The notes under the pieces: model-generated
What the model was told of the DNA's origin: nothing
The model's database searches: none
The model's input: only the letters and a program-made list of their open reading frames with translations
From: Anaeromyxobacter sp.
GTDB lineage: Bacteria > Myxococcota > Myxococcia > Myxococcales > Anaeromyxobacteraceae
Assembly: GCA_049840735.1 (NCBI GenBank)
Contig: JASGJN010000020.1
Location: 736,001 to 800,000 of the forward strand
DNA length: 64,000 bases
Direction of reading: 5' to 3'
Position numbers and translations under genes: made by a program
Part shown: one piece after another, positions 45,904 through 63,614 of the stretch
How positions within the stretch are numbered: position 1 is the first letter of the stretch
How the letters are laid out: every line of letters begins with the position of its first letter

Positions 45904-46971
45904 ATGATGAAGCCGCTCACGGCAGTCCTGGCTTTCCTCTGCATGGCACTCGTCGCCTGGGCTGCGCCAGCAGCCGCCGCGGACAAGGGCACGGTGGGCA
46001 TCTCCATGCCGACCAAGTCCTCCGCCCGCTGGATCTCCGACGGCGAGAGCATGGTCAAGGCGTTCCAGGCGAAGGGCTACAAGACGGACCTGCAGTACGC
46101 CGAGGACGACATCCCGAACCAGCTGGCGCAGGTCGAGAACATGATCACCAAGGGGGTCAAGGTCCTGGTGATCGCCGCGATCGACGGCACCACCCTTTCG
46201 GACGCGCTGCAGAAGGCCGCCGACAAGGGCATCAAGGTCATCGCCTATGACCGGCTCATCCGCGGCTCGAAGAACGTCGACTACTACGCGACCTTCGACA
46301 ACTTCCAGGTGGGCGTGCTCCAGGCGAACTCGATCGTCGAGAAGCTCGGCCTGAAGCAGGGCAAGGGTCCCTTCAACATCGAGCTGTTCGGCGGCTCGCC
46401 CGACGACAACAACGCCTTCTTCTTCTACGACGGCGCCCTCTCCGTGCTGAAGCCGTACCTCGAGAACGGCAAGCTCGTGGTGCGCAGCAAGCAGATGGGC
46501 ATGGAGAAGGTCGGGACGCTGCGTTGGGACGGCGCGGTCGCGCAGGCCCGCATGGACAACCTGCTGTCGGCCTTCTACGGCAAGGACCGCGTCGACGCGG
46601 TGCTGTCGCCGTACGACGGGCTCTCCATCGGCATCATCTCGTCGCTCAAGGGCGTCGGCTACGGCACGCCCAAGCAGCCCATGCCGATGGTCAGCGGCCA
46701 GGACGCCGAGATCCCGTCCATCAAGGCCATCCTCCGCGGCGAGCAGGGCTCCACCGTGTTCAAGGACACGCGTGAGCTCGCCAGGGTGACCGCCGAGATG
46801 GTCGACGCCCTCCTCTCCGGGAAGGCGCCGCAGGTCAACGACAACAAGACCTACCACAACGGCATCAAGGTGGTGCCCTCCTACCTGCTGAAGCCGGTGA
46901 GCGTGGACGCCACCAACTGGAAGGCCGTCCTCGTGGGCAGCGGCTACTACAAGGAAAACCAGATCCTGTAG
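45904..46971 (+). CDS. chvE: Multiple-monosaccharide ABC transporter binding protein
   Basis: [52 protein letters not shown]. Confidence 0.93.
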
Positions 46972-46980
46972 GCTTGAGAC

Positions 46981-47018
46981 GCGCGGGGAGCCCGCCCCCG
47001 TGGGCGGGCGCCTCGCGC
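46981..47018 (+). terminator. Intercistronic hairpin after chvE (mRNA stabiliser or attenuator)
   Basis: GCCCGCCC-CCGT-GGGCGGGC stem extended by GCGCGGGG/CCTCGCGC. Confidence 0.5.
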
Positions 47019-47047
47019 AGCGACGCGGCCCGGCGAGCGGAGGGACT

Positions 47048-48586
47048 GTGGACGCACTCCTCGAGATGCGCGGCATCAGCAAGGCCTTTCACGGCGTGCC
47101 CGCGCTGACCGACGTGAACCTGGTGGTCCGCCAAGGCGAGATCCACGCCGTGGTGGGGGAGAACGGCGCCGGCAAGTCGACGCTGATGAAGGTGCTCTCG
47201 GGGGTCCACCCGCACGGAGAGTACAGCGGCGAGATCCGCTACCTGGGACAGGAGCGCCGCTTCGGCGGCATCGCCGACAGCGAGAAGCTGGGCATCATCA
47301 TCATCCATCAGGAGCTGGCCCTGGTCCCGCTCCTGTCCATCGCGGAGAACATCTTCCTCGGCAACGAGCAGGCCCGCCACGGCGTGATCGACTGGGCGCT
47401 GGCCCACAAGAAGACGCGCCAGCTGCTGGCCAAGGTCGGCCTGCGCGAGTCTCCCGCAACGCTCATCACCGACCTCGGCGTCGGCAAGCAGCAGCTCGTC
47501 GAGATCGCCAAGGCGCTGTCGAAGGAGGTCAAGCTCCTCATCCTCGACGAGCCCACGGCCAGCCTCAACGAGAGGGACAGCGACGCGCTGCTGGAGCTCC
47601 TGCTCGGGCTGAAGGCGCACGGCATCACCTGCATCCTCATCTCGCACAAGCTCCACGAGATCTCGAAGGTGGCCGACTCCATCACCGTGCTGCGGGACGG
47701 CGCCACCGTCGCCACCCTCGACTGCAGCGCCGGCCCGGTCAGCGAGGACCTCGTCATCCAGAAGATGGTCGGCCGCGAGATGACCGACCGCTACCCTCGC
47801 CGCACACCCCGCCCCGGAGAGACCGTCTTCGAGGTGCGCGACTGGCGGGTCTTCCACCCTCTCCACGCCGACCGCCAGGTGGTCAAGGGCGTGAACCTGA
47901 GCGTGCGGCGGGGCGAGATCGTCGGCATCGCCGGACTGATGGGCGCCGGCCGCACCGAGCTGGCCATGAGCCTCTTCGGCCGCTCCTGGGGCCGCCGCAT
48001 CAGCGGCAAGGTGCTCATGGACGGCCGGGAGGTCGACGTCGGCACCGTGCAGAAGGCCACCGCCCACGGGATGGCCTACGTCACCGAGGACCGCAAGGGG
48101 CTCGGGCTCGTCCTCAACGACAGCATCGCGCACAACACCACGCTGGCGCACCTGCCCGGCGTGTCGCGGCGCGGCGTCATCGACGACGGGCGCGAGCACA
48201 GGGTGGCCACGGACTTCCGCGCCAAGCTGGCCACGCGCTGCGCCGGGGTTCACCAATCGGTGGTCAGCCTGTCGGGCGGCAACCAGCAGAAGGTGGTGCT
48301 GGCCAAGTGGCTCTTCGCCGACCCCTCGGTGCTCATCCTCGACGAGCCCACCCGCGGGATCGACGTGGGCGCCAAGTTCGAGATCTACACCCTCATCGCC
48401 AAGCTGGCCGAGGAGGGCAAGGCCATCCTGATCATCTCGTCCGAGATGCCCGAGCTGCTGGGGATGTGCGACCGGCTCTACGTGATGAGCGAGGGCAGCC
48501 TCGTGGGTGAGCTCACCGCCGCCGAGGCGTCGCAGGAGCTGATCATGCGCACCATCGTGAAGGCCAGCGCCCGGACCGGGACGTAG
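47048..48586 (+). CDS. gguA: Sugar ABC transporter ATP-binding protein with two NBDs
   Basis: [35 protein letters not shown]. Confidence 0.92.
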
Positions 48587-48596
48587 AGGAGACCTC

Positions 48597-49789
48597 GTGG
48601 AACCGTCCATCGCCGTCGCGACCGCGCGCCCCACGCAGCGCACCGCGCACTTCCTGAAGCAGAACCTGCGCGAGTACGGGATGCTGCTGTCCCTCGTGGC
48701 CATCATGATCTTCTTCCAGATCATGACCGAGGGCACGCTGCTGCAGCCCCTCAACCTGACCAACCTGGTGCTGCAGAACAGCTACATCGTCATCATGGCG
48801 CTGGGGATGTTGCCGCTGATCGTGGCCGGCCACATCGACCTCTCGGTGGGCTCCTCCAGCGGCTTCATCGGCGCGCTGGCCGCGGTGCTGATGGTGACCC
48901 ACGACTGGCACTACGTCCCGGCCACCCTGGCCTGCCTGCTGATGGGGGCCCTCATCGGCGCGGCCCAGGGCTGGTTCATCGCGTTCTTCAGATCCCCTCG
49001 TTCATCGTCACGCTGGCAGGGATGCTGGTGTTCAAGGGGCTGGCGCTGGCGCTGCTGCACGGCCAGTCGGTGGGCCCGTTCCCGTACGAGTTCCAGAAGC
49101 TGAGCTCGGGCTTCATTCCCGACGCGTTCTCCGGCGCCGAGCTCCGGCTCACGTCACTGCTGGCCGGGATCGTGCTTGCGGGCGTGATGCTGGCGCTGGC
49201 CTGGCGCAGCCGCCAGAACCAGCTCGAGCACGAGATGGAGGTCGAGCCCTGGGCGCTGTTCGTCGCCCGCAACGGCGCGTTCGCCGCCGTCATCGTGGCG
49301 ATCAGCTGGCTGCTGGCCTCGTACAAGGGGCTGCCCAACGTCCTCGTCATCATGCTCGCCCTGATGGTCGCCTACGACTTCATCACGACCCGCACCGTCC
49401 TGGGGCGGCGCATCTACGCGCTGGGCGGCAACGAGAAGGCCGCGCGGCTCTCTGGCATCCGCACCGAGCGGCTCTCCTTCTACGCCTTCGTCAACATGGG
49501 CGTGCTCGCCGCGCTGGCCGGCCTGGTCTTCGCGGCGCGGCTCAACACGGCCACGCCCAAGGCCGGCCAGGGGTTCGAGCTCGACGTGATCGCCGCCTGC
49601 TTCATCGGCGGGGCCTCGGCCGCGGGCGGCGTGGGCAAGATCATGGGCGCGGTCATCGGCGCCTTCGTCATGGGCGTCATGAACAACGGCATGTCCATCC
49701 TGGGCGTCGGAATTGATTACCAGCAGGTGATCAAGGGGCTGGTGCTCCTGGCCGCGGTCTTCGTGGATGTCTACAACAAGAACAAGTAG
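48597..49789 (+). CDS. gguB: Sugar ABC transporter permease (frameshift ~48992)
   Basis: GHIDLSVGS, IPSFIVTLAG across the junction, GRRIYALGGNEKAARLSGI, FELDVIAACFIGGAS. Confidence 0.9.
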
Positions 49790-49948: not shown

Positions 49949-49976
49949 GTGGTAACGCCGCTTGTCGGTGCCGGTG
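49949..49976 (+). promoter_or_regulatory. Candidate ECF-sigma promoter, copy 1
   Basis: GTGGTAAC-N15-CGGTG upstream of exbB; identical motif and spacing at 55635-55662. Confidence 0.6.
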
Positions 49977-50026
49977 ATCCTCTGGCGTACGGCCGCTCTC
50001 CGCGGCCCTTCACCGGAGCCCAGAAG

Positions 50027-50680
50027 ATGACCCGCCAGCTGTTCGAGCTGTTCACCCGCGCCGGCGCGGAGTGGGTGATGTTCCTCCTCGTCCTCCTCTC
50101 GATCGCCTCGGTGGCGGTGATGCTGGAGCGCCTCCTCTTCTTCGCGCAGCGCGGCCGGGAGGTGCCCGGCCTGCTGGCGCTGCTCCAGTCCGGCCGCCTG
50201 GCGGAGGCCCGTGCGCTGCTGGGCGCGCGGCGCGGCCTGGAGGCCGACGTGGCCCGGGCGGCGCTGGCCGCGGCGGACGGCGGACCGGCCTCCGTCAAGG
50301 AAGCGGTCGAGTGCGCGGTGGCGGTGGGCCGCCCCGCCTACGAGCGCGGGCTCTCGTTCCTGGGCACGCTGGGCAACAACGCGCCGTTCCTGGGCCTGTT
50401 CGGCACCGTGGTGGGCATCATCAAGGCCTTCTCCGACCTGGCCGTGGGCGGCCCGCGCGGCGCCGGAGCCGCCGCCGTGATGGCCGGCATCTCCGAGGCC
50501 CTGGTGGCCACCGCGGTCGGGATCCTGGTCGCCATCCCGGCGGTGGTGGCCTTCAACGCGTTCCAGAAGCGGCTGCGCACCCTGACCGCGCGCGCCGAGG
50601 CGGGCGGCCACGCCCTGGCCTCCTGGCTCGAGCGCGACGACGTCCGCGAGGCTGCGCTCCGGCGCACCCACGCGGCCTGA
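50027..50680 (+). CDS. exbB: MotA/TolQ/ExbB proton channel protein
   Basis: FLGTLGNNAPFLGLFGTVVGII, GISEALVATAVGILVAIPA. Confidence 0.9.
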   Translation: MTRQLFELFTRAGAEWVMFLLVLLSIASVAVMLERLLFFAQRGREVPGLLALLQSGRLAEARALLGARRGLEADVARAALAAADGGPASVKEAVECAVAVGRPAYERGLSFLGTLGNNAPFLGLFGTVVGIIKAFSDLAVGGPRGAGAAAVMAGISEALVATAVGILVAIPAVVAFNAFQKRLRTLTARAEAGGHALASWLERDDVREAALRRTHAA

Positions 50681-50707
50681 CGCCCCCCAAGCCCCGAGGA
50701 GCCAGCC

Positions 50708-51130
50708 ATGGCCGCGCACACCGGCGGAGCCGACGACGCCATCACCGGCATCAACGTCACCCCGCTCGTCGACATCACCCTCGTCCTGCTCGTCGTCTTC
50801 ATGGTCACGGCCTCGTACATCGTGAAGGAGTCGATCGAGGTGGACCTCCCCCGTGCCGCCGCCGGGGGCGAGACGGTGGGGCCCACCCTGTCCTTCGTCC
50901 TCGACCGCGGCGGCCGCCTCTACCTGGACGGCCAGCCCGCCGATGCCGCCGCCGCCCGCGCCGCCGTCCGGGCCGCGCTGGCGCGGAGCCCGGAGGCGCG
51001 CGCCATCATCGGCGCCGATCGGGCGGTCTCGCACGGCGCGGTGGTCGAGGTGATCGACCTCGTCAAGCAGGAGGGGCTCACCCGCTTCGCCATCCAGATC
51101 GAGCGCAACGCCGCCGGGGACGTGCCGTGA
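50708..51130 (+). CDS. exbD: ExbD/TolR family protein
   Basis: INVTPLVDITLVLLVVFMV, ADRAVSHGAVVEVID. Confidence 0.92.
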   Translation: MAAHTGGADDAITGINVTPLVDITLVLLVVFMVTASYIVKESIEVDLPRAAAGGETVGPTLSFVLDRGGRLYLDGQPADAAAARAAVRAALARSPEARAIIGADRAVSHGAVVEVIDLVKQEGLTRFAIQIERNAAGDVP

Positions 51131-51885
51131 CCTCGCCGTCCGACCACCCCGCGTCGCGCGGCGCCGGCCGGGCCCTGGCGCTGGCCGGGACGGCAGCCGC
51201 CTCGCTCCTGCTGCATGGGGTGGGGTGGGCCGCGGCCGCGCGGCTCACGCCGCGGGCTGCCCGAGCCACGGCCCCCGTGACGGTGGCCTTCGAGGTGGCG
51301 CCGCCGCCCCCGGCGCCGGCGCGATCCACCCCGCCGCCGCCCCCGCAACCGGTCCCCGTCCGGCGCGCGGTCCACGCCTTCAGGCGCCCCACGCCGCCGG
51401 CGGCGGACCTGCCGCCGCCTCCGCCGCCCAGCGAGGCGCCGCCGCCCGACGCACCGGCACCCCGCGCCGCCCCGCGGGTGGGAATCACGCTCTCCTCCAC
51501 GGCCACCGGCGGCGCCTTCGCCGTCGGCACTGGCAACACGCTGTACGGGCGCGCCACCGAGACGGCGGGTGACCCTGCCGAGGCCCACCCCTACGCGGCG
51601 GTGCCGGCCGCGCGGCGCTCCGTCCAGCCGCGGCTCCTGGAGCGGCCGGAGATCGCCTATCCGCCGGAGGCGCGCCGTGCCGGCGTGCAGGGGCGGGTGG
51701 GGCTGCTCTTGCGCCTCGACGCGGAAGGGCACGTCGTCTCGGCCCGCGTGCTGGAGGACCCAGGCGCCGGACTGGGCGAGGCCGCCCGCACCGCTGCGCT
51801 CCGGTTCCGCTTCTCCCCTGCGCGGCTGGACGGGGCCGCCGTCGAGACCGAGCTGCGCTTCACCTACACCTTCGTCCTGGAGTGA
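51127..51885 (+). CDS. tonB: Energy transducer TonB
   Basis: TM with SLLLH motif, Pro-rich linker, YPPEARRAGVQGRV TonB_C domain. Confidence 0.88.
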   Translation: MTSPSDHPASRGAGRALALAGTAAASLLLHGVGWAAAARLTPRAARATAPVTVAFEVAPPPPAPARSTPPPPPQPVPVRRAVHAFRRPTPPAADLPPPPPPSEAPPPDAPAPRAAPRVGITLSSTATGGAFAVGTGNTLYGRATETAGDPAEAHPYAAVPAARRSVQPRLLERPEIAYPPEARRAGVQGRVGLLLRLDAEGHVVSARVLEDPGAGLGEAARTAALRFRFSPARLDGAAVETELRFTYTFVLE

Positions 51886-51889
51886 ATTC

Positions 51890-54478
51890 ATGATCCGCGC
51901 CGTCCCCCTCGCGTTCGCCCTGGCCCTCGCGCTCCTGGGCGCGTCCCCTGCCCGCGCGGAGGCACCCCCGGGACCCGCCGGACCGGGCGCGCTCACCCGC
52001 GCCCCGGAGGTGATCGCCCCGGCCGAGCCCGACTACCCCGCCGAAGCCCGATCCGCGGGGTTGGAGGGCGAGGTCACGCTGGAGCTGGAGCTCTCCGAGG
52101 CCGGCGCCGTCACCGACGCGGTGGTGGTGAGCCCGGCCGGCCACGGCTTCGACGAGGCCGCGCTGGAGGCGGCCCGCCGGCTGCGCTTCTCGCCCGCCGA
52201 GATCGACGGCCGGCCCGCTGCGGTCCGGATCGCCTACCGCTTCACCTTCGCCCTGGCGCCTGCCGCGGCCGCGGCACCGCCGCCGGTCAACCTGCGCGGC
52301 CAGGTGGTGGAGCGAGGCACGCGCCTGCCGGTGGCGGGGGCGCGGGTGACGGCCGGCGGCGCCTCCGCGTACACCGATCGCGACGGGCGCTTCGCCCTGG
52401 CCGGCGTGCCCGAGGGCACCGTGCAGGTGGTGGTGGAGGAGCCGGAGCACCGGCGCCTCGCCTCGCCGGAGGAGGTCCGGCCCGGGCAGGCCACGGAGGT
52501 GAAGTACTGGCTGGAGCGCACCGCCCAGGGCGCCTTCGAGGTGGTCGTCACCGGCAAGCGGGAGGAGAACGAGGTCTCGCACGTGGCCATCTCGGCCGGC
52601 GAGATCCGCCGCGTCCCGGGCGTGTCGGGCGACGCCGTGAAGGTCATCCAGAACCTGCCGGGCGTGGCGCGCACGCCGGGCTTCTCCGGCGACCTGGTGG
52701 TCCGCGGCGGCAACCCGCGCGACACGCGCGTCTACGTGGACGGCCACGAGGTGCCGCAGGTCTTCCACTTCGGTGGGCTGACCAGCGTCTACTCCTCCGA
52801 GCTCATCAAGGACGTGGAGTTCGAGGCCGGCAACTTCGGCGTCCGGTACGGCCGCGCCATCGGCGGCCGCGTGAACCTCGTCACCCGTGATCCCGGCGAG
52901 CGGACCCACGCGCTCGCCGACGTGAACCTGTACCACGCCACCGGCCTCTACGAGGGGCGGCCGCGGGAGGACCTGGGGCTGGCCCTGGCGGCGCGCCGCT
53001 CCTACGCCGACGCGGTCCTGACCCGCGCGGCCGAGTCGATGACCGACGGGCCCACGCTCTCGGTCGCGCCCCGCTACTACGACCTGCAGGCCAAGGCCGC
53101 CTGGAAGGCGGGCCCGGCCGACACGCTGCGGCTCGACGCCTTCGGCTCGGACGACCGGATGGTGCTGACCGGCCTGCGCCTGGATGACAGCGTGCAGCAC
53201 CTCGACAGCTTCGAGAACGGCACCCGGTTCTGGGCGGCGACCGCCCGCTGGGATCACCGGGCCAGCGAGGACACGCGGCTCGGGGTCGAGCTGGGGGGCG
53301 GCTACGCCGCGTACACCACCACCGTGGGCGACCAGTTCTCGGAGGATGACCAGGTGTGGTCGGGCACCTTCCGCGCCGAGGTGCGGCAGCGCCTGGGCGC
53401 GCGCGCCCGGGTGGTGACCGGCGTGGACGCGCTCTGGTACCCGCGCGCCCAGCTCTCGGTGACCGCGCCGGAGATCCCGCCCGCCGGCCAGGTCCCCGAT
53501 CCCTACTCGCCCTCGCGGATCTACGAAGACACCGCCACTGGCGGCGAGGCGGGCGTGTACGTCGAGGCCACGCTCGAGCCGGTGGACGGCCTGTTCGTCG
53601 TCCCGGGCGTCCGCGCCGACCTGCACCGGACCCTGGCCTCGCTCTCCTGGGTGGACCCGCGCCTGGCGGTGCGCTGGCAGGCCAGCCCGGGCACCGCCCT
53701 CAAGGCCGCGGCCGGCCTGTACCACCAGGCCCCGTCGCTGGTGTACCTGACCGAGCAGTGGGGCAATCCGGACCTGAAGGCCGAGGGCGCCTGGCAGTAC
53801 TCGGCTGGCGTGGAGCAACGGCTGACCCCGCAGCTCTCGCTCGATCTGCAGGTCTACTGGAAGCGGCTCTTCGACCTCGCGCTCCCGACCGACGCGACGG
53901 TGGTGCGCGGTGGCCAGGAGGAGCCGCTGCGCTACACCAGCGCCGGCAGCGGCGACGCCTATGGCGCCGAGGCGCTGCTGCGCTGGGACCCGGATGGCCG
54001 CTTCTTCGGGTGGGTCGCCTACTCGCTCTCGCGCACCCGCCGCGACCAGGCGGTGGCCGGCGGGCGCATCGAGGACGAAGGCGACGCCTACGACCAGCCC
54101 CATAACCTGGTGGCGGTGGGCACCTGGGAGCTGCCGGAGCTGTGGCGAGGGCTCTCCGCCGGGTTCCGCCTCCGCTACACCACCGGGAGCCCCTACGAGG
54201 CGATCCACGGCGCCGTCTACGACGCCGACGGGGACGCGTACCAGCCGCTGGAGTCGGGCAAGCGCGGCGAGCGGATGCCGGACTTCATCCAGCTCGACCT
54301 GCGCGCCGACAAGCGCTGGACGTTCCAGGCCTGGACCCTGTCCGCCTACCTGGAGATCCAGAACGCCACCAACCGGCAGAACGCCGAGGCCGTCTCCTAC
54401 GGCTACGACTACCGCCAGCGGGCCTGGGTGACCGGCCTGCCCATCTTCCCCGCCTTCGGCGTGCGCGCCGAGTACTGA
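51890..54478 (+). CDS. TonB-dependent receptor with N-terminal TonB_C and carboxypeptidase-regulatory-like domains
   Basis: Signal peptide; YPAEARSAGLEGEV TonB_C; plug IQNLPGV..LVVRGG..YVDG; barrel ending GVRAEY. Confidence 0.9.
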   Translation: MIRAVPLAFALALALLGASPARAEAPPGPAGPGALTRAPEVIAPAEPDYPAEARSAGLEGEVTLELELSEAGAVTDAVVVSPAGHGFDEAALEAARRLRFSPAEIDGRPAAVRIAYRFTFALAPAAAAAPPPVNLRGQVVERGTRLPVAGARVTAGGASAYTDRDGRFALAGVPEGTVQVVVEEPEHRRLASPEEVRPGQATEVKYWLERTAQGAFEVVVTGKREENEVSHVAISAGEIRRVPGVSGDAVKVIQNLPGVARTPGFSGDLVVRGGNPRDTRVYVDGHEVPQVFHFGGLTSVYSSELIKDVEFEAGNFGVRYGRAIGGRVNLVTRDPGERTHALADVNLYHATGLYEGRPREDLGLALAARRSYADAVLTRAAESMTDGPTLSVAPRYYDLQAKAAWKAGPADTLRLDAFGSDDRMVLTGLRLDDSVQHLDSFENGTRFWAATARWDHRASEDTRLGVELGGGYAAYTTTVGDQFSEDDQVWSGTFRAEVRQRLGARARVVTGVDALWYPRAQLSVTAPEIPPAGQVPDPYSPSRIYEDTATGGEAGVYVEATLEPVDGLFVVPGVRADLHRTLASLSWVDPRLAVRWQASPGTALKAAAGLYHQAPSLVYLTEQWGNPDLKAEGAWQYSAGVEQRLTPQLSLDLQVYWKRLFDLALPTDATVVRGGQEEPLRYTSAGSGDAYGAEALLRWDPDGRFFGWVAYSLSRTRRDQAVAGGRIEDEGDAYDQPHNLVAVGTWELPELWRGLSAGFRLRYTTGSPYEAIHGAVYDADGDAYQPLESGKRGERMPDFIQLDLRADKRWTFQAWTLSAYLEIQNATNRQNAEAVSYGYDYRQRAWVTGLPIFPAFGVRAEY

Positions 54479-54499
54479 CCCGCACCCCTGGAGAACGCC

Positions 54500-55603
54500 A
54501 TGAGGCCCACCCTCCCGCTCGTCGCCGCCGCGCTCCTCGCCGCCGGCTGCATGCCCGATCTCGACCCTGCCTCGGAGGTCACCGGGCTCCGCGTCCTGGC
54601 CGTGCGCGCCGAGCCGCCTGAGCTCGCCCCCGGTGCGGCCGGCGCGCCCGACCGGGCCACGCTCGGTGCGCTCGTCGTGCACCCCGCCTTCACCGCCGCG
54701 CCCGACCGGCGCGCCACCGTGCTCCACGTGGCCTGCACACCCGTCCCCGGCGACCCGAGCCCCTCGCCCTGCACGCAGCTCACCGAGCTGGCCGATCCGG
54801 TGGCACTGCTGGCGCTCGTGGATCCTTCCCAGGCCTGCGCCGCGCCCGGGACCGGCGCGGCAGGGGCCATCACGCTGGCCGGCCTGGAGGCGTGCGGCGC
54901 CCTGGGCTGCGAGCCGGTGGTGGTCCTGCGCGATCCGGCCGACGCCACCTCCGCGGTGACGCTCCCCGCGCCCGGCTACGCGCTGCCGGCCGGGTACACG
55001 CTGGACCTCCCGGCCGGAAACGCCCAGCGCGTGCTGGGGGTCCAGGTCGTGGACCTGGCGCTGGCCCTCGACGCCGGGCCGGAGGCGCTCGCGCCGGTCG
55101 AGCCGGCCGCGGACGCATGCGCGGCGCTGCTGGCCGTGGCGGAGCGGTTCGGAGCCGCCTGGGCCAGCTCCGAGCACGTCACTGCCCTCAAGCGGATCAC
55201 CGTCCGCGGGCCGGACGCGCCCTCGCCGCCCAACCGGAACCCGGAGCTCACCGGCGTCACGCTGGACGGCCGCGCCCTTCCCCTGCCCGGCCAGGCGCCG
55301 GCCTCGGTGGCTGCCGGGGTAGAGGCCGGCTTGCTGCCGGTGCTCCCTGGCGATCCGGACGCGCTGCGGGAGGAGTACGTGCGCTGCGACGCCGCCGGGA
55401 GGCCCATCGAGACGCGGCGGGAGGACTGGACCTTCTCCTGGTTCGCCACCGCCGGCGAGCTGCAGCACCTGCACACCTACGACGCGACCGAGGCCGACCG
55501 CTACACGGCGCCGGGCGAGGGCCAGGTGCTGGTCTGGGCCGTGGTCCGCGACCTGCGCGGCGGGGTGGCCTGGCGCGCCGCGGCGCTGGAGGTGGCGCGC
55601 TGA
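54500..55603 (+). CDS. Cys-containing lipoprotein associated with the TBDR
   Basis: Lipobox LLAAG-C; RVLAVRAEPPE, NRNP and VRDLRGG..W motifs. Confidence 0.8.
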   Translation: MRPTLPLVAAALLAAGCMPDLDPASEVTGLRVLAVRAEPPELAPGAAGAPDRATLGALVVHPAFTAAPDRRATVLHVACTPVPGDPSPSPCTQLTELADPVALLALVDPSQACAAPGTGAAGAITLAGLEACGALGCEPVVVLRDPADATSAVTLPAPGYALPAGYTLDLPAGNAQRVLGVQVVDLALALDAGPEALAPVEPAADACAALLAVAERFGAAWASSEHVTALKRITVRGPDAPSPPNRNPELTGVTLDGRALPLPGQAPASVAAGVEAGLLPVLPGDPDALREEYVRCDAAGRPIETRREDWTFSWFATAGELQHLHTYDATEADRYTAPGEGQVLVWAVVRDLRGGVAWRAAALEVAR

Positions 55604-55634
55604 GGTGATTCCCGCGCCCCGATCTTCACCCATC

Positions 55635-55662
55635 GTGGTAACGCGGGATGCCCACCCCGGTG
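55635..55662 (+). promoter_or_regulatory. Candidate ECF-sigma promoter, copy 2
   Basis: GTGGTAAC-N15-CGGTG about 50 nt upstream of the 55712 gene. Confidence 0.6.
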
Positions 55663-55711
55663 TTTCCACTCTGGACGGGCCGCTCCGGCCCGAGGAGAGG
55701 ACCCCGAAGCC

Positions 55712-56695
55712 ATGAGCCCCCGCACCTTGCTCGCCGCCCTGTCCACCCTGGCCGCCCTGCCCGCCCTGGGCCAGGAGGCCGCACCCGCCGCGGCGCCGCC
55801 GCGGCGCCACGTCACGGTGGACGTCTCGCTGGTCCCGGGCCTGAGCATCAACGGCGAGGGACCGGTGCTGAACAACCTCTCCCTCGGCCTGGTGGCCCAC
55901 TCCACCGAGCTGCGCGGCGTGGCCCTCGCCGCGGCCCACCTGGCCGACGGCGACGTGACCGGGCTCCAGTGGACCTGGGCGGCCTCCAGCGCCGGCGGCA
56001 CCGTCCGCGGCGTCCAGCTGGCCAGCTTCGCCAACGTGGCCGGCGACCTGCGCGGCCTGCAGTGGGGCGGCGTCAACGTGACACGCCGCGGCGTCGAGGG
56101 CGTGCAGCTGGCGGTGGTCAACGTGGGCGGCGAGGTGGCGGGCTCCCAGATCGGGCTCGTCAACGTGGCGCGCAAGGTCCACGGGCTGCAGCTCGGTGTG
56201 GTCAACGTGGCCCGCGAGGCGGACGGCTCGGTCGGTGCGCTGGCGCTGGTGGGCGACGGCCGGCACCAGGCCGAGTTGTTCGCGACCGAGTTGACCCCGC
56301 TCGCGGCCGGGGTGCGGCTGGGTGGCCGCCGCGCCTACGGCGTGCTCACCGGCGGCGTGCAGCCGGAGCAGCGCCCCTCCGGCCGCACGCTCTGGACCAC
56401 CGGTGGCGGCGGCGGCGTGGGCTTCCAGCCCACGGCGCGGCTCTCGCTCGACCTGGACCTGACCGGCCAGTGCCTCTGGCTCGACGACACCGCCGAGGGC
56501 GTGGTGGGAAGCCTCCGCGCCACCGCCGGGTGGCGCTTCACGCCCTGGCTGGCCGCCTTCGCCGGGCCGACCGCGAACGTGGTGATCTCCGACGAGGCGC
56601 AGCCCGACGTGGACCTGGGGACGCAGTTCGGTGAGGGGACGGGCAGGTACCAGCGGTACTGGTTCGGCTTCGTCGCGGGCCTGCGCGTCTTTTGA
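55712..56695 (+). CDS. Exported GxQxGxxN-repeat (LA_2272-like) protein with C-terminal beta-barrel
   Basis: Signal peptide; tandem G(L/V)Q(L/I)GxVNVA repeats; amphipathic strands ending GLRVF. Confidence 0.8.
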   Translation: MSPRTLLAALSTLAALPALGQEAAPAAAPPRRHVTVDVSLVPGLSINGEGPVLNNLSLGLVAHSTELRGVALAAAHLADGDVTGLQWTWAASSAGGTVRGVQLASFANVAGDLRGLQWGGVNVTRRGVEGVQLAVVNVGGEVAGSQIGLVNVARKVHGLQLGVVNVAREADGSVGALALVGDGRHQAELFATELTPLAAGVRLGGRRAYGVLTGGVQPEQRPSGRTLWTTGGGGGVGFQPTARLSLDLDLTGQCLWLDDTAEGVVGSLRATAGWRFTPWLAAFAGPTANVVISDEAQPDVDLGTQFGEGTGRYQRYWFGFVAGLRVF

Positions 56696-56810
56696 CCGCG
56701 CCGCCCATTCGCGTCGAGCCTCCGCTCGACCGGTGGCCGCCATGAGCACTGGCGGGATGGCGTGAGGAAGCGGTAGAACGGGCCCGTCCAGCGGGCCAGA
56801 GGAGGGCGAG

Positions 56811-57320
56811 GTGGCGGTCGACGTCGAGGCGTACTACCGGGACCTGGGTCCCATGGTGCTTCGCCGCTGCCGCCGCCTCCTCCGCGACGAGGAGAAGGCC
56901 GTGGACGCCATGCACGACACCTTCGTGAACCTGCTGCGCGCTGGGGACCGGCTGTCCCACCAGGCCCCGGCGTCGCTGCTCCTGCGCATCGCCACCCACG
57001 TCTGCCTCAACCGGCTGCGCTCCGAGCGACGCCACCCCGAGGATCGCGACGAGGAGGCGCTGCTCGCCATCGCGGCGGCCGAGGAGCCCGAGGCGCAGTC
57101 CCTGTCGCGCTTCGTGCTCCGGGACATCCTCGGCCGCGAGCCGGAGTCGACGCGGGTCATGGCCGTGCTCCATCACGTGGACGGCCTCACGCTCGAGGAG
57201 GTCGGGCGGGAGGTGGGGCTCTCGGCGGCGGCCGTGCGCAAGCGGCTCCGGGGCCTCAAGGCACGGGTGGCGGCGCTGGCGGCGTTGCCCGAGTCCCCTC
57301 CCGGCGCGGAGGTCGCATGA
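56811..57320 (+). CDS. ECF RNA polymerase sigma factor
   Basis: Region 2 DAMHDTF..LLRIATHVCLNRLR; region 4 DGLTLEEVGREVGLSAAAVRKRL; GGAGG RBS. Confidence 0.9.
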   Translation: MAVDVEAYYRDLGPMVLRRCRRLLRDEEKAVDAMHDTFVNLLRAGDRLSHQAPASLLLRIATHVCLNRLRSERRHPEDRDEEALLAIAAAEEPEAQSLSRFVLRDILGREPESTRVMAVLHHVDGLTLEEVGREVGLSAAAVRKRLRGLKARVAALAALPESPPGAEVA

Positions 57321-58114
57321 GCCCGCGCCGGCCCCCCACGCCCGACGTCCTGGTCGAGCGGCTCCACGCTGGCGACCTCTCCCCCGCGGAGGCGGTGCGC
57401 GTCCGCGCACGCCTCGAGGCCGAGGGCGGCCTGGACCGGCTGGCGGCGTTGGACCGCGACGCGGCCACCTTCCGCGAGGCCCACCCGCCCGGCCCGGGGC
57501 TGGCCGAGATCCGCCGCCGGGCCGGCCTGCGGACCGGCGCTGCGCCGCGCCCGCGGCGCCGCTGGGCCATCCCTGCCTTCACCCTGGCCGCGGCGGCGGC
57601 CGCCGCCGCGCTGCTCGCGGTGGTCCGCGCGCCGGGGCTGCCCGGGCCGGGCGGCGCCGCCGGCGAGGACACGCGGCTCAAGGGTCCCGGGCCGCACCTT
57701 CAGGTTCACCGGCGCGGGCCTGGCGACGTCCCGCAGCCGCTGCCCGACGGCGCCACGGCCCGGGCCGGCGACGTGCTGCAGCTCTCCTGCGTGGCGGCCG
57801 GTGGCGCGTTCGGCGTCGTGGTCTCGATCGACGGGCGCGGCACCGTCACGCTTCACCTGCCCGACGCCCCCGGGCCGGCTGCGCGGCTCGAGGCGCGCGG
57901 CGCGGTCCCGCTGCCGCACGCCTACGCGCTCGACGACGCGCCGCAGTTCGAGCGCTTCTTCCTCGTCACCTCGAACGCTCCCTTCGACGCCGAGCTGGCC
58001 CTCGCGGCCGCGCGCCGGCTGGCCGCCTCCGGGCGGGCCGACCGCGATCCGCTCCCAGTCCCGGCGCCGCTGGCCCAGCAGGGGTTCCTGCTGGTGAAGG
58101 CCCCGGCCCGATGA
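57317..58114 (+). CDS. Putative membrane anti-sigma factor (ActD/DUF4384-like)
   Basis: ASD-like N-terminus (LVERLHAGDL..VRARL), single TM, TRLKG, AGDVLQL..VVVSIDGRG..AYALDDAP.FERFF; ATGA overlap with the sigma gene. Confidence 0.75.
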   Translation: MSPRRPPTPDVLVERLHAGDLSPAEAVRVRARLEAEGGLDRLAALDRDAATFREAHPPGPGLAEIRRRAGLRTGAAPRPRRRWAIPAFTLAAAAAAAALLAVVRAPGLPGPGGAAGEDTRLKGPGPHLQVHRRGPGDVPQPLPDGATARAGDVLQLSCVAAGGAFGVVVSIDGRGTVTLHLPDAPGPAARLEARGAVPLPHAYALDDAPQFERFFLVTSNAPFDAELALAAARRLAASGRADRDPLPVPAPLAQQGFLLVKAPAR

Positions 58115-60244
58115 TCCCTTCGCGCTCCCTGCGCCTCGCCCTGGCTGCGCTGGCCACCGCCGCCGGGCTCTCGGCTGGCCCCGCGGCCGGGCAGGCCGCG
58201 CCGCTCGCCATCCGCCGCCTCGCCCTGGTGACCGGCGCCAACGACGGCGGCCCGGAGCGCGCGCGGCTGCGCTACGCCATCAGCGACGCCGAGCGGTTCG
58301 CCCGCGTGCTGCAGCAGATGGGCGGCGTGGCCGGCCCGGACCTCATCCTGCTGCTCGACCCGGACGCCGCCGGGCTCCGCGCCGCCATGGCCGACCTGAA
58401 GCGGCGGGTGGGGCGGTCGGCGGCGGAGGCGCGGACGGAGGTCATCCTCTACTACTCCGGCCACTCCGACGAGGACGGGCTCCTGCTCCGGGGCGACCGG
58501 ATCCCCTACCGTGAGCTGCGGGCCTGGCTGGAGGGGACAGGCGCGGGGGTCCGCATCGGAATCCTCGACTCCTGCGCCTCCGGCAACTTCACCCGCGGCA
58601 AGGGCGGGATCCGGACGACGCCCTTCCTGGTGGACGCCTCGACGCAGGTCTCGGGGCAGGTGATCCTCACCTCGTCGTCGGCCGACGAGGCCTCCCAGGA
58701 GTCGGACCGGATCGGCGCCTCCTTCTTCACCCATTACCTCGTCACCGGCCTGCGCGGCGCCGCCGACGCCAGCCGCGACGGCAAGGTCACGCTCTCCGAG
58801 GTCTACCAGTTCGCGTTCCACGAGACGCTGGCCCGCACCGAGCGGACGCGCAGCGGCCCGCAGCACCCGGCCTGGGACATCGCGCTGGTGGGCGCCGGGG
58901 ACGTGGTCATGACGGATCTGCGCGGGACCGGCGCCACCCTGGTGCTGCCGGCGCCGGTGGTGGGCCGCTTCTTCGTGCGCGACGCCGGGGAGCGGCTGGT
59001 GGCCGAGCTGCGCAAGGAGGCGGGCGAGCCGGTTCTCGCTGGCGCTCGATCCCGGCAACTACCGCGTGACGCGCGAGACCGACGGGCTCCTGGTCGAGGC
59101 GCGGCTCTCGCTGGGGAGCGGCGCCACCGAGCTGCCGCGCCAGGGGTTCGAGCCGGTGCCGCGCGAGCGGACGGCCATGCGCGGTGACCAGGTGGAGGAC
59201 CTCGCCCGGATCCCGGTCGATTCTCGAATCTTCCCGCCGGTCTCGCTCAACGGCGACCGGTACGTGGAGAACCGGCTGCAGCTGGGGCTCATCGCCTCCC
59301 GCACCACCCGCCTGCGCGGCCTGGGGCTGGCGCCCGTGCTCTGGGCCGACGAGGACGTGATGGGGGCCCAGCTCGCCTACATCGGCAACTCGGCGCGGGG
59401 GAAGGTGACCGGCGTGCAGGGGGCGACGGTGGCCAACGTCTCCGGCCCGCTCTCCGGCCTGCAGGTGGCCACCGGCCTCAACCTGGCGCGCGGTCCGGTG
59501 TACGGGATGCAGCTGGCCACATTCGCGAGCTGGGCCACCGACCACGTGCACGGCGCCCAGGCGGCGGTGTTCCTCGACTACGCGCACCAGCTGACCGGGG
59601 TCCAGGTGGCCACGGTCTCCATCGCCGAGCAGGTGCAGGGTGGCCAGGTCGGGCTCGTGAACGTGGCGGACGACGCCCAGGGGGCGCAGGTAGGGCTCGT
59701 CAACGTGGCGCTCCGGGCGCGCGGCACGCAGGTGGGGCTGATCAATGTGGCCGGCGAGCTGGACGGCGCGCCGGTGGGGCTGCTCTCGCTGGCCGGCAAC
59801 GGCGAGCAGAAGGTGCTGCTCCTGGGCGACGAGAGCGGGATGCTCGGCGCCGCCGCGCTGCTGGGCAGCCAGACTTTCCACACGCTCCTCGTGGGCAGCG
59901 TCCAGCAGGCCGGTGACGGCCCTCGCACCTGGGCCGGGCTGGGGCTGGGCACACACGCAGCGAGGGGGCGGCTCCTGCTGGACGTCGACCTCGTGGCCCA
60001 GGCGGCGCAGGGCGTCTCGCAAGAGAACGTGCTCGTCACGGCGCGCGCGCTCGTGGGCTGGTCGCTCCGGCCTCCGGGGACGTGGGGGGCGGCGCTGGTG
60101 GCCGGCCCCACCGTGAACGGCTTCTTCGCCGAGGAGGGGTTCGACCCGGGGCTCGGGAGCCCGTTCTCCTGGCGCTTCGGCGGCGGCGACGGGACCGCTC
60201 GCGGCTGGCTCGGTTTCCAGATCGGCCTGCGCGCCGGCCGCTGA
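58111..60244 (+). CDS. Exported caspase-family (C14) protease fused to GxQ repeats and a beta-barrel-like domain (frameshift ~59030)
   Basis: Signal peptide; YYSGH and ILDSC catalytic dyad; SQES..SFFTHYLVTGLRGAAD..DG.VTL.E.Y; C-terminal half in frame 59066..60244. Confidence 0.85.
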
Positions 60245-61407: not shown

Positions 61408-61619
61408 CTCGTCCTCCCGGGCCCTCACCGGATGGTGCGGGACGCTCGTACGATCCACCACGGGTGCGGGCGGCGGCACCTCCCGCGATGAAGTCACCCG
61501 TGAGCAGGGGAGAGCGCCTCTCCAACCTGGGCTACGCCGGCGAGCGCTCGGGACCTGGCCGATCGCTTGCGCGCTCCGCCCGCTGGAGGGGATGAGCGAC
61601 GCTCTCCGCTCGCAGTTCC

Positions 61620-62018
61620 GCGCCGTCACGGCGCGGATCCGCACGCCTCCCGGGAGCTCCCGCTCTTCCGACTGCGGTCGCGCCTGACGATACCAGCGGT
61701 TCGCGAACCCGAGCACGCGCTCGATGGCCGGCATGACGTCGATGACGAGATCCTGGAACAGCCAGCGACACACGGGCGCGCCTTCGCGCTGGTCCTCCCG
61801 CGAAAGCCCAGCCTCCGAAGCCGATCTCCCAGCTGCGCCCAGGCCGCGTAGGTCGTGACCTCCACGACCACGTCGACATCCTGCGTGAAGCGGGGTCGCG
61901 GTGCCGCCGGATCCGTGACGAAGAGGTCGACGACCGCGCCCCCCACGAAGATCACCTCGTCCTTGAGATCGCCGAGCGCCACGACCGCCCGCGCCAGCAT
62001 GTCGAGGTTTGGCGTCAT
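61620..62018 (-). pseudogene. AbiEii-like nucleotidyltransferase toxin, frameshifted (~61800) and apparently 3'-truncated
   Basis: VFVGGA-type motif (VIFVGGA)..PRFTQDVDVVV; continues CRW..IDVMP..LGFANRWY..IRAVTA, then similarity is lost. Confidence 0.7.
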
Positions 62019-62563
62019 CGCTTGCTCCTCGAGAGCATCCGCTGGAGGAGGTCGCCTGCGACCTGCCGCTCCCGCGCTGAGCCACCGCGGATCGCGTCGA
62101 CGAGGGCGGCCGCGTCGTACATCGGCGCGTCGGCGAGGATCGCCCTGATGGTGGCCTGCGACGAGTAGAGCGGCGAGAACGACTCCCCCCGCGCCGTTCC
62201 CTCCGGGTCCGGCCAGACGGGCACCGAGCCGTCGCCGTGCGCGATGAGGTTTCGCAGCACAGGCGCAGCGTATCCGGTCGGATGGCCTCGCGTGAGCTGA
62301 CCTCGGACGACGGGGAACGCGTACTTCACGCCGTGGATCAGGAACTCCAGCAGGTTCTGCACCTGCACGCCGATGCCCTTGGGTCCGCTGGCGACCGCGA
62401 GCCTGGACAGGAGGCCGCGCTGCACCGCTGCGTGGACCTCGGACACACTCAACCCCAGCGCCGCCGCGACTTGGGGATACGACCAGGCGGCGTCCCTTCG
62501 GAGCGCGAGGTTGATCAGGACCAGGACGTCCTGAGGCTTGAGCTGGGGCGCCTTCCCTGGCAC
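62015..62563 (-). CDS. HTH antitoxin/regulator paired with the nucleotidyltransferase (type IV TA-like)
   Basis: LKPQDVLV..WSY..AAALGLSVSEVH HTH; EFLIHGVKYAFP, VWPDPEG, DAIRGG.ARER; ATGA overlap with the NTase. Confidence 0.8.
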   Translation of the reverse strand: MPGKAPQLKPQDVLVLINLALRRDAAWSYPQVAAALGLSVSEVHAAVQRGLLSRLAVASGPKGIGVQVQNLLEFLIHGVKYAFPVVRGQLTRGHPTGYAAPVLRNLIAHGDGSVPVWPDPEGTARGESFSPLYSSQATIRAILADAPMYDAAALVDAIRGGSARERQVAGDLLQRMLSRSKR

Positions 62564-62569
62564 ACGCTT

Positions 62570-62598
62570 ATGCTATTCGCGATTCGCGAATACCGCAA
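62570..62598 (-). promoter_or_regulatory. Sigma-70 promoter with a palindromic operator in the spacer
   Basis: Minus strand TTGCGG-N17-TAGCAT; perfect palindrome TATTCGCGA-T-TCGCGAATA at 62574-62592. Confidence 0.75.
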
Positions 62599-62610
62599 GC
62601 TTCGCCCCAG

Positions 62611-62792
62611 GGCCCCGCTCGCCGGCCCCGCTCGCCGGCCCCGCTCGCCGGCCCCGCTCGCCGGCCCCGCTCGCCGGCCCCGCTCGCCGGCCCCGCTCGC
62701 CGGCCCCGCTCGCCGGCCCCGCTCGCCGGCCCCGCTCGCCGGCCCCGCTCGCCGGCCCCGCTCGCCGGCCCCGCTCGCCGCAACCGCTCGCC
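62611..62792. repeat. 13-bp tandem repeat (GGCCCCGCTCGCC) x13 plus one degenerate copy
   Basis: Perfect head-to-tail units from 62611 to 62779 with no spacers. Confidence 0.95.
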
Positions 62793-62878
62793 GCGTGGCG
62801 AAGCCAGCCTTCTTGGATCTTCGCCGACATCGCTGGCCCGGCCAGGCTCCGCAGTCCGTTCCCCTCTCCCCAGAAATC

Positions 62879-62913
62879 AGAAACCCCGACCGCTTTTCGG
62901 CGATCGGGGCTCT
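62879..62913 (-). terminator. Hairpin downstream of the antitoxin gene
   Basis: Minus strand AGAGCCCCGATCGCCGAAAAGCGGTCGGGGTTTCT followed by GATTTCT. Confidence 0.6.
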
Positions 62914-62974
62914 GGGCTGGTTGCGGGGGCTCACTGGTGAGCTTGCTGCTCGGGTCGAGTTCTCGACGTGAGTG

Positions 62975-63277
62975 CTACCCCTTCGCCGCGGACCCGTGGA
63001 GCTCCAGGCCGAGCGCCCGGATGACCCGCATCACCGTGCCGAACTCCGGGTTCCCATCGGGAGAGAGCGCCTTGTAGAGCCCTTCGCGCGTGAGCCCCGT
63101 CTTGCGGGCGAGGCCCGCCATGCCACGCGCGCGCGCGATGTTGCCGAGCGCCGCCGTGATGAAGGCTGGATCCTCGCGCCCCTCCTCCAGGCAGGCCTCC
63201 CAGTACCGGGCGACGTCCGCGTCGGTCTTGAGGTGCGCCGCCGAGTCCCACTTCTTGAGCTTGAACTTGCCTGCCAT
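62975..63277 (-). CDS. Addiction-module antidote protein (HI1420/HigA-like XRE HTH)
   Basis: WDSAAHL, ALGNIARARGMAGLARKTGLTREGLYKALSPDGNPEFGTV. Confidence 0.9.
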   Translation of the reverse strand: MAGKFKLKKWDSAAHLKTDADVARYWEACLEEGREDPAFITAALGNIARARGMAGLARKTGLTREGLYKALSPDGNPEFGTVMRVIRALGLELHGSAAKG

Positions 63278-63286
63278 TCCCGACTC

Positions 63287-63450
63287 CTAGACCTGCTTCG
63301 CGAGCGCCTTGGCCGCCTCGATGTCCTTCGCCTGCGAGCCCTTGTCACCCCCGGCCAGCAGGATGACCAGCTCGCGCCCTCGCTGGACGAAGTAGATGCG
63401 ATGGCCCGGCCCGTAGTCGAGCCGCATCTCCGAGACGCCACCGCACGTCC
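63287..63450 (-). pseudogene. RelE/ParE (HI1419-like) toxin lacking its N-terminal half
   Basis: [38 protein letters not shown] is intact; upstream sequence does not resemble the family N-terminus. Confidence 0.75.
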
Positions 63451-63614
63451 TTGGTGATCGCTGGGCCCTGGAGGTACCACGCGCCAGTCGCTTGCTCGAA
63501 CGGGCGACGAACTCAAAGGTCACCGTTCCGGGAGTCCCGATCAGTGAATCGCCCCGGGAGGGAGGAACAGTAGCGTTGCCTTCCGAAAGGCGTGCAGTGC
63601 GGAGCAGCCTATTG

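Follow-up and report, generated by a model that had tools for sequence, protein, structure and literature searches.

Nine co-oriented genes occupy positions 50027-60244 of a 64,000-nucleotide (nt) window of Anaeromyxobacter sp. DNA (assembly GCA_049840735.1, contig JASGJN010000020.1, positions 736,001 to 800,000). They include a sigma factor of the extracytoplasmic function (ECF) class, an ActD-family anti-sigma and a C14 caspase-like protease, which together are called here the trio and lie downstream of a TonB uptake operon. Comparison with related loci suggests a circuit in which the caspase, predicted to be anchored in the outer membrane, cuts the anti-sigma, and in which the sigma then transcribes both its own operon and the TonB operon. 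A first-pass annotation of the window had described nine such genes; all are present, and the gene families are confirmed by Pfam or NCBIfam where profiles exist. The genome is high-GC and of 6.67 Mb, and the closest protein matches (75-78% identity) are from Anaeromyxobacter. The features of the locus are listed below in window coordinates.

49951..49978, + strand: ECF promoter predicted for the TonB operon; -35 GGTAACG, 14-nt spacer, -10 CGGTGAT, one consensus mismatch; about 77 nt 5' of the exbB ATG
50027..50680, + strand: exbB (PF01618, E 8.7e-31)
50708..51130, + strand: exbD (PF02472, E 6.7e-27)
51127..51885, + strand: tonB, with a transmembrane (TM) segment, proline-rich linker and TonB_C (PF03544, E 4.3e-14)
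51890..54478, + strand: TonB-dependent receptor (TBDR); by Pfam, N-terminal TonB_C, CarboxypepD_reg, plug and barrel
54500..55603, + strand: lipoprotein with lipobox LAAGC, directly after the TBDR
55637..55664, + strand: GGTAACG-N14-CGGTGTT, the ECF promoter predicted for the GxQ-sigma-anti-sigma-caspase operon; about 76 nt 5' of the GxQ ATG
55712..56695, + strand: GxQ protein (LA_2272 GxQ repeats; a stand-alone β-helix and small barrel); NF047436 above cut-off
56811..57320, + strand: ECF sigma, 169 amino acids (aa); PF04542 44 bits, TIGR02937 58.3 against a cut-off of 42.9
57317..58114, + strand: ActD-family anti-sigma, 265 aa; assigned by ortholog names, structure model and hhalign to FecR N-domains
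57674..57685, + strand: R-L-K-G of the anti-sigma (residues 120-123); predicted periplasmic site-1 cut after K122
58111..60244, + strand: C14 caspase-like protease (PF00656); signal peptide, caspase, Ig, β-helix and 8-strand barrel; split by an extra base
58462..58575, + strand: catalytic His118 (58462-58464) and Cys155 (58573-58575) in YYSGH and ILDSC; S1-pocket positions D59, S116, D153
58591..58608, + strand: predicted loop for self-processing, T-R-G-K-G-G, C-terminal to the catalytic Cys, with R-x-K-G as in the anti-sigma
59171..59185, + strand: predicted release site T-A-M-R-G, which separates the Ig domain from the β-helix

The sigma and anti-sigma genes, and likewise the anti-sigma and caspase genes, overlap by 4 nt (ATGA) as the first-pass annotation had noted, and the GxQ gene is flanked by gaps of 108 and 115 nt. 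The locus had been given a start at 49949. This is an upstream GTG which overlaps the predicted -35 box, and exbB orthologs align from the ATG at 50027. From their arrangement and the two predicted promoters, the nine genes are probably transcribed as two units, one from each predicted promoter. The promoter pattern has two matches in the window and none in 100 shuffles, a comparison to be read with the derivation of the pattern from these same two sites in mind. Searches of the locus for an Rfam element, a sigma-70 promoter or an intrinsic terminator found none.

A survey of the gene neighbourhood of the trio, which the first-pass annotation had recommended, drew on GTDB and took the loci whose caspases were nearest to this one (the best 80 of at least 467). 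The anti-sigma gene lies directly 5' of the caspase gene in 76 of the 80. The four exceptions are two contig ends, one lone caspase and one rearranged trio (L050) whose caspase gene stands head-to-head with the sigma gene, with one promoter each. Sigma, anti-sigma and caspase genes follow in this order in 57 of the 72 loci with sufficient upstream DNA. The 80 loci include some from Myxococcota, Spirochaetota, Bradymonadales, FCPU426 and a Gammaproteobacterium, and by sequence comparison the trio is a widespread arrangement conserved across phyla. However, 13 of the 72 loci carry the anti-sigma and caspase genes without an intact adjacent sigma. Sigma remnants are found 5' of the anti-sigma gene in loci L012 and L023, and an additional short ActD-like gene with a promoter in L047. 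Genome G118 has a split trio: a sigma and a second ActD-like gene without caspase (L140, C1:297000-298400), with an actD-caspase pair 3.5 Mb away. The genome studied here contains four trios, namely that of the window and three paralogs with other C-termini. The paralogous caspases (L001, L002 and L003, on contigs C20, C13 and C26 of this genome, G000) are of about 510-530 aa and have no β-helix, while their anti-sigmas all keep x-K-G after the TM segment; that of L003 is seemingly frameshifted.

In size (169 aa) and in its PF04542 and TIGR02937 matches the window sigma conforms to ECF (group 4) sigmas; PF08281 scores 21.1, under its cut-off of 25.7. Group ECF25 is described in the accessible text of PMC7826278 as having at position +1 a single-pass anti-sigma with zinc motif and/or DUF4384, in Deltaproteobacteria, Spirochaetes and Fibrobacteres; placement of the window sigma in ECF25 is plausible, as judged from this group description.

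Orthologs of the anti-sigma, among them ActD of Myxococcus xanthus, bear the name ActD or ActD-like and are followed by the caspase gene. The window protein is 44% identical to that of locus L039, whose 90% cluster contains M. xanthus ActD, and ActD-like proteins are present in 99 of the 151 Myxococcota genomes searched. It has no Pfam or NCBIfam match. Its structure model, with the layout of a class I transmembrane anti-sigma, consists of helices (residues 10-73), a TM segment (85-103), a linker with confidence (pLDDT) below 50 (107-121) and an Ig-like domain of 135 residues (127-261), and 68 of 69 members of the family have one TM segment as judged by KD19 of at least 1.6. Aligned by hhalign with 39 FecR N-termini, the N-domain gave Prob 89.7 (E 1.9e-6, 48 columns), the 20 controls reaching at most 0.44; on this profile evidence it is homologous to FecR anti-sigma domains. 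The FecR periplasmic domain occurs in none of 67 members, and DUF4384 is weakly matched by 27 of them. The HxxxCxxC zinc motif is absent from the window anti-sigma and is kept in two paralogs (L001, L002); zf-HC2 is matched by one of the 67 members, at E 0.057. With the model as query, Foldseek returned no match at E 0.001 or better, and the VIA structure search returned generic Ig folds only (Z up to 8.7) which barely covered the N-domain. We regard ActD as very probably the cognate anti-sigma of the adjacent sigma.

The caspase gene is read in two frames in this assembly (58111-59187 and 59066-60244). The first-pass annotation had treated it as one gene without mention of the break, and the single gene is upheld by orthologs P0001-P0004 and P0015, which are single proteins of 699-704 aa matching both halves. 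Alignment of the DNA with five relatives locates one extra base at about 59,026-59,033 in comparison with all five, and this base is probably an assembly error. The model of ortholog P0003 (pLDDT 84.6, pTM 0.50) is composed of a caspase domain, an Ig-like domain, a β-helix and an 8-strand barrel. The caspase domain gives Z 18.3 (root-mean-square deviation, rmsd, 3.0 over 209), and its counterpart in the window matches PF00656 (peptidase C14, clan CD) at 43.7 bits. The β-helix gives Z 17.9, and residues 560-702 resemble OprF (Z 14.2, rmsd 2.6 over 119) and NspA (Z 13.3, rmsd 2.7 over 128). Moreover, an N-terminal h-region is found in 65 of 69 caspases. A small barrel with an even number of strands leaves the part N-terminal to it in the periplasm, as in the OmpA topology. 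The caspase is therefore predicted to be exported, anchored in the outer membrane and exposed to the periplasm, and the ortholog model bears out this location, which had been proposed from the window alone.

The His/Cys dyad (YYSGH, ILDSC), present as had been claimed, is invariant in 71 of 71 aligned caspase domains, and so are D59, S116 and D153. The latter three align with the acidic pocket of metacaspases and presumably form the S1 pocket here too. Caspase homologs are described as cleaving after Arg or Lys (PMC8283722, in the passages available). Candidate sites for such an activity are found in both proteins. In the anti-sigma, R-L-K-G lies at the end of the low-confidence stretch 107-121, just outside the TM segment; K122 and G123 are invariant in 67 of 67 members and R120 is found in 85%. 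In the caspase, the K, G and G of the motif after the catalytic Cys are invariant and its R is kept in 97%, the motif being disordered in the P0003 model, and R/K-G precedes the β-helix in 69 of 69 proteins, where P0003 has a linker of pLDDT below 50 (352-360). All three basic-Gly motifs thus lie within or border such linkers, so that their invariance is not explained by folding, and we infer from their conservation that they may be cut sites. The conserved K-G could nevertheless be a docking or inhibitory motif. Complex prediction with the caspase domain and the periplasmic part of ActD was uninformative (scores 0.00 and 0.01, against a mark of 0.32). Cleavage of ActD by the caspase seems to us rather likely.

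The output of the sigma can be approached through its promoter motif. RGTRACR-N14-CGGTGTT stands 5' of 54 of 56 sigma genes from other genomes and ranks 1-3 within the locus under leave-one-out scoring; at the two loci where it is missing, it precedes the gene upstream of the sigma. The seed pattern of the motif had been picked by eye from these same regions. A matrix trained on these foreign sites has three matches of at least 14 across the 6.67-Mb genome, with the GxQ site ranking first (22.9) and the exbB site second (15.4). However, the exbB score of 15.4 alone proves little, because shifted-spacer controls give 3-37 matches of at least 14. A comparative test of the exbB site is stronger than this single-genome score. 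Orthologous exbB was found in 19 of 92 genomes of the family, a site being taken as a score of at least 11 (the next best was -1.5). The site is present in 10 of 12 genomes with the sigma versus none of the seven in which no sigma was found (79-100% complete), and in none of 11 paralogous exbB loci. The Fisher p of 7e-4 overstates this association, because the genomes are related.

The exbB site is kept even when exbB is unlinked from the sigma by 38-694 kb, in G060 (694 kb), G172, G173 and G182 and, outside the family, in G043 and G118 (690 kb). The complete genomes G060 and G134 have exactly two matches each, one at the sigma operon and one at exbB, with none for the controls. Variants of the boxes covary at both sites: GGTAGCG in G060, G134, G138 and G181, and the -10 box GGGGTT in G172 and G173. 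Three spirochaete loci have the site 5' of a TBDR. Several observations weigh against a fixed link of sigma and uptake genes. Genomes G176, G216 and G105 have sigma and exbB without the site, exbB lying directly 3' of the caspase gene in G216. Outside the family, the site is found in 8 of 16 exbB loci of sigma-bearing genomes and in one of seven such loci of genomes where no sigma was found (G242, a weak site of 13.5). Distant TBDR-lipoprotein loci and the paralogous module L004 have no site, and the TonB module adjoins the trio in seven of 80 loci, in three arrangements, many contigs being short. Larger genomes have 5-16 motif matches, many of them 5' of unrelated exported proteins. The predicted targets that recur comprise the sigma operon, actD-caspase, GxQ genes standing alone and exbB; the motif also stands 5' of 5/5 Archangium-type actD-caspase pairs which have no sigma. 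Judging from this promoter conservation, the regulon of the sigma very likely comprises its own operon and the TonB operon. The claim that the sigma switches on the TonB module as well as its own operon is therefore supported in that the shared motif tracks the sigma across genomes, but it was overstated in treating the module as part of the core; the module is a frequent target of the trio, not a component.

Within the TonB operon, the TBDR has no STN domain (PF07660) by Pfam, and was rejected as a FecA-type transducer for this reason. It was likewise rejected as the myxochelin receptor MxcH (NF038079 at 101 bits against a cut-off of 925, through the N-terminal part only). The lipoprotein has no Pfam or NCBIfam match and its Atlas clusters are unnamed; relatives occur in 71 of 151 Myxococcota genomes and follow directly on a TBDR match in the 20 regions compared. 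A second exbB-exbD-tonB-TBDR-lipoprotein module of this genome is L004 (G000:C20:325000-330300), which is without the promoter motif. The GxQ protein, the first gene product of the second operon, is 36% identical to the C-half of the caspase (Atlas TM 0.80 to the caspase cluster); it is a caspase-less paralog of that half and may damp the response.

Since the predicted promoter of the trio also fronts the TonB operon, the protease likely cuts the sigma's probable inhibitor and so switches on uptake genes. On balance we lean towards a mechanism in which the anchored caspase zymogen is activated at the outer membrane, processes itself and cuts ActD as its dedicated site-1 protease, whereupon the sigma transcribes both operons. 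In the resting state the caspase would be inserted in the outer membrane by its 8-strand barrel and carried on the β-helix stalk in the periplasm, with active-site loops that are unformed in the model. The trigger would be an envelope signal, with the barrel or stalk as its probable sensor, that clusters or reshapes the caspase. Since the barrel is small and has short loops, a cue from the periplasm or envelope is no less plausible than an external ligand. The caspase would then cut itself at R-x-K-G and at the R-G before the stalk, which would free it to reach the inner membrane, and could there cut ActD after K122 and remove the Ig-like cap. If DdvA and FoxR are a guide, an RseP-type protease would next release the sigma, and the sigma would transcribe its own operon, with the GxQ paralog, and exbB-exbD-tonB-TBDR-lipoprotein.

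Other roles can be imagined for the caspase. With an unchanged regulon, the caspase domain, or the K-G linker of ActD as a pseudo-substrate, might hold the two proteins together and protect ActD until a signal breaks the contact and the housekeeping proteases Prc and RseP release the sigma. Indeed, the head on this anchor in sigma-FecR trios is STN, which is a binding domain (see below); the STN of FoxA is described as protecting FoxR from proteolysis (PMC11637429, accessible passages), and DUF4384 as often fused to proteases (bioRxiv 10.1101/2022.08.17.504292, accessible passages). Such protection is nonetheless unlikely, since the dyad and S1 positions are invariant (71/71), so that catalysis appears to be under selection, and since the motif in ActD repeats that of the loop which follows the catalytic Cys in the caspase itself.

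The caspase could also belong to the sigma's output, as the TonB genes do. Control of ActD would then fall to general proteases, and the caspase would process other periplasmic proteins in remodelling, defence or lysis. The caspase gene does lie behind the sigma's promoter and has its own promoter copy in L050, sigma-less actD-caspase pairs keep the promoter, and autolytic roles are suggested in the available passages of PMC3501461. We consider this more doubtful still, as the caspase gene stays beside the anti-sigma gene even without a sigma (76 of 80 loci) whereas other targets vary, and as the K-G motif is common to ActD and the caspase.

It is very improbable that the circuit, real in relatives, is damaged in this strain by a genuine extra base that leaves an unanchored caspase of 358 aa. 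The gene is indeed frameshifted in the assembled sequence, and no contig from two sequencing runs (X1, X2) bridges the break. However, six of 43 other tested genes of the same assembly are likewise frame-split, the coding-type bias in third-position GC (GC3) runs on in the new frame to 60244, and the C-half is 47-58% identical to orthologs. Least credible of all is that the TonB operon is a mere neighbour, as its rare adjacency, the siteless distant loci and the -10 box mismatch here might suggest, given an exbB site which survives unlinking, is lost where no sigma was found and has covarying boxes.

Returning to the caspase as likely protease of ActD, its anchor is of wider interest. The β-helix/barrel module was followed through its 150 best representatives: 83 have a caspase and eight have an STN and/or CarboxypepD_reg head, two of the eight being from Chitinophaga and Niastella. 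The STN fusions were detected by exhaustive search, a word-index search with the GxQ protein having found none. Among 80 metagenome loci of the STN form (L255-L334), the module profile is matched by 73, and caspase and ActD are absent from all; an ECF sigma and FecR are the two preceding genes in 49 of the 56 with at least 1,700 nt upstream. In cell-surface signalling, the contact with anti-sigmas is described as being made by STN (PMC11637429, in part). The anchor is thus gene three of two sigma-trio types, which argues that it is an upstream partner of the anti-sigma and not mere output. A TBDR upstream of the STN trios was rejected as a rule, the 36 scanned having yielded one clear plug domain and one protein with CarboxypepD only. 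Further heads on this anchor (P0257, P0268, P0271, P0336, P0199, P0349) comprise an unnamed domain and a protein-kinase fragment, and DUF2807 genes recur beside STN trios and 3' of one myxobacterial promoter copy (L272, L287, L301, L232). As a tentative generalisation, which we hold to be somewhat less likely than not, the β-helix with 8-strand barrel could be a general transporter-free outer-membrane transducer whose periplasmic head is swappable, STN contacting FecR in Bacteroidota and a self-releasing Lys/Arg caspase cutting ActD in myxobacteria and spirochaetes. Bacterial caspases could in that case serve as dedicated site-1 proteases, passing a signal from the outer membrane on to the inner one, with ActD and its caspase as a hidden sigma switch in the developmental act operon of Myxococcus.

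The act operon of M. xanthus has the same anti-sigma family followed by the same caspase, and the same promoter motif before actD, but no sigma beside actD. The caspase gene downstream of actD is, we take it, the one labelled actE. A predicted ECF promoter lies directly 5' of actD in all six act-type loci (L027, L031, L032, L039, L040 and L046, at about 9000-9100) and also at G118:C1:3802718, the upstream genes being taken as actABC by size and order. With a near-consensus promoter directly before actD, transcription of actD and the caspase gene may be independent of the act genes upstream. A description of ActD as an anti-sigma was not found in openly accessible literature, subscription papers on act lying beyond that search. 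The present results recast ActD, from a classic developmental operon, as a likely anti-sigma whose gene has a predicted promoter to itself.

The circuit resembles both regulated intramembrane proteolysis and cell-surface signalling, and falls outside the FecIRA and DdvS/DdvA systems by membership. In the accessible text of PMC11506125, the DdvS/DdvA system of M. xanthus likewise comprises an ECF sigma, a single-pass anti-sigma with a helical N-domain and a periplasmic caspase-fold protease proposed to make the site-1 cut before RseP; the caspase-like site-1 (self-)cleavage of DdvA is there a hypothesis. However, DdvA carries its own TPR-CHAT, whereas here a separate C14 protein sits on a predicted outer-membrane barrel and the anti-sigma has an Ig-like cap, with neither TPR-CHAT nor zinc motif. 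Moreover, the predicted targets are uptake and envelope genes here and CBASS/CRISPR for DdvS/DdvA; no CBASS/CRISPR gene was among those scanned downstream of motif matches, a scan made without a dedicated defence-library search. The type III-E Csx29/Csx30/RpoE system (bioRxiv 10.1101/2022.08.17.504292) also has a caspase-like protease which cuts a sigma-binding protein in a flexible linker, and some Csx30 C-terminal domains are DUF4384. In the passages available, Csx29 nevertheless differs in being an RNA-triggered, CRISPR-bound, cytoplasmic TPR-CHAT protease, with no membrane-spanning relay.

FecIRA/Fox systems (PMC11637429, accessible passages) share the combination of outer-membrane protein, inner-membrane anti-sigma and ECF sigma, and the predicted output here includes a TonB receptor. 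They differ in that the TBDR here has no STN and the anti-sigma no FecR domain, the outer-membrane partner being a small barrel which carries a protease. Operons with sigma-70 beside a metacaspase were reported in Myxococcus, Anaeromyxobacter, Haliangium and Sorangium (Asplund-Samuelsson 2012, PMC3501461), framed in terms of cell death; the available passages of that paper contain no anti-sigma, anchor, promoter, regulon or mechanism. Among structures, the paracaspase MALT1 (PDB 8v4x, 3v4o) gave the best Foldseek matches and likewise has a caspase followed by an Ig domain, with a basic P1 predicted here. The match is weak (E 8e-5, 14-18% identity, and an rmsd of about 15 when both domains are included), and VIA ranks other caspases equal or higher.

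The first-pass annotation knew of no experimental description of the circuit. No description of it was found in openly accessible literature, although subscription papers and part of the ECF-group supplement might hold one; its elements do have precedents in DdvA, Csx29/Csx30/RpoE and the sigma-70/metacaspase operons of 2012. Most bacterial caspase homologs have, to our knowledge, no known substrate or role. For one widespread caspase family there is now a candidate substrate, with the cut predicted to the residue, as well as a predicted promoter and predicted target genes, and two unstudied types of sigma trio are linked through one outer-membrane anchor. The candidate circuit is testable in Myxococcus xanthus or Anaeromyxobacter.

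The neighbouring regions of the window were assigned by inspection. A sugar ABC importer (binding protein, ATPase and permease) occupies 45904-49789, its permease being split over two frames near 49,000-49,100, probably by another assembly indel. On the minus strand, 61532-63516 contains a nucleotidyltransferase-like/regulator pair and a short addiction-module-like pair, and a 27-nt tandem repeat lies near 62,600-62,750.

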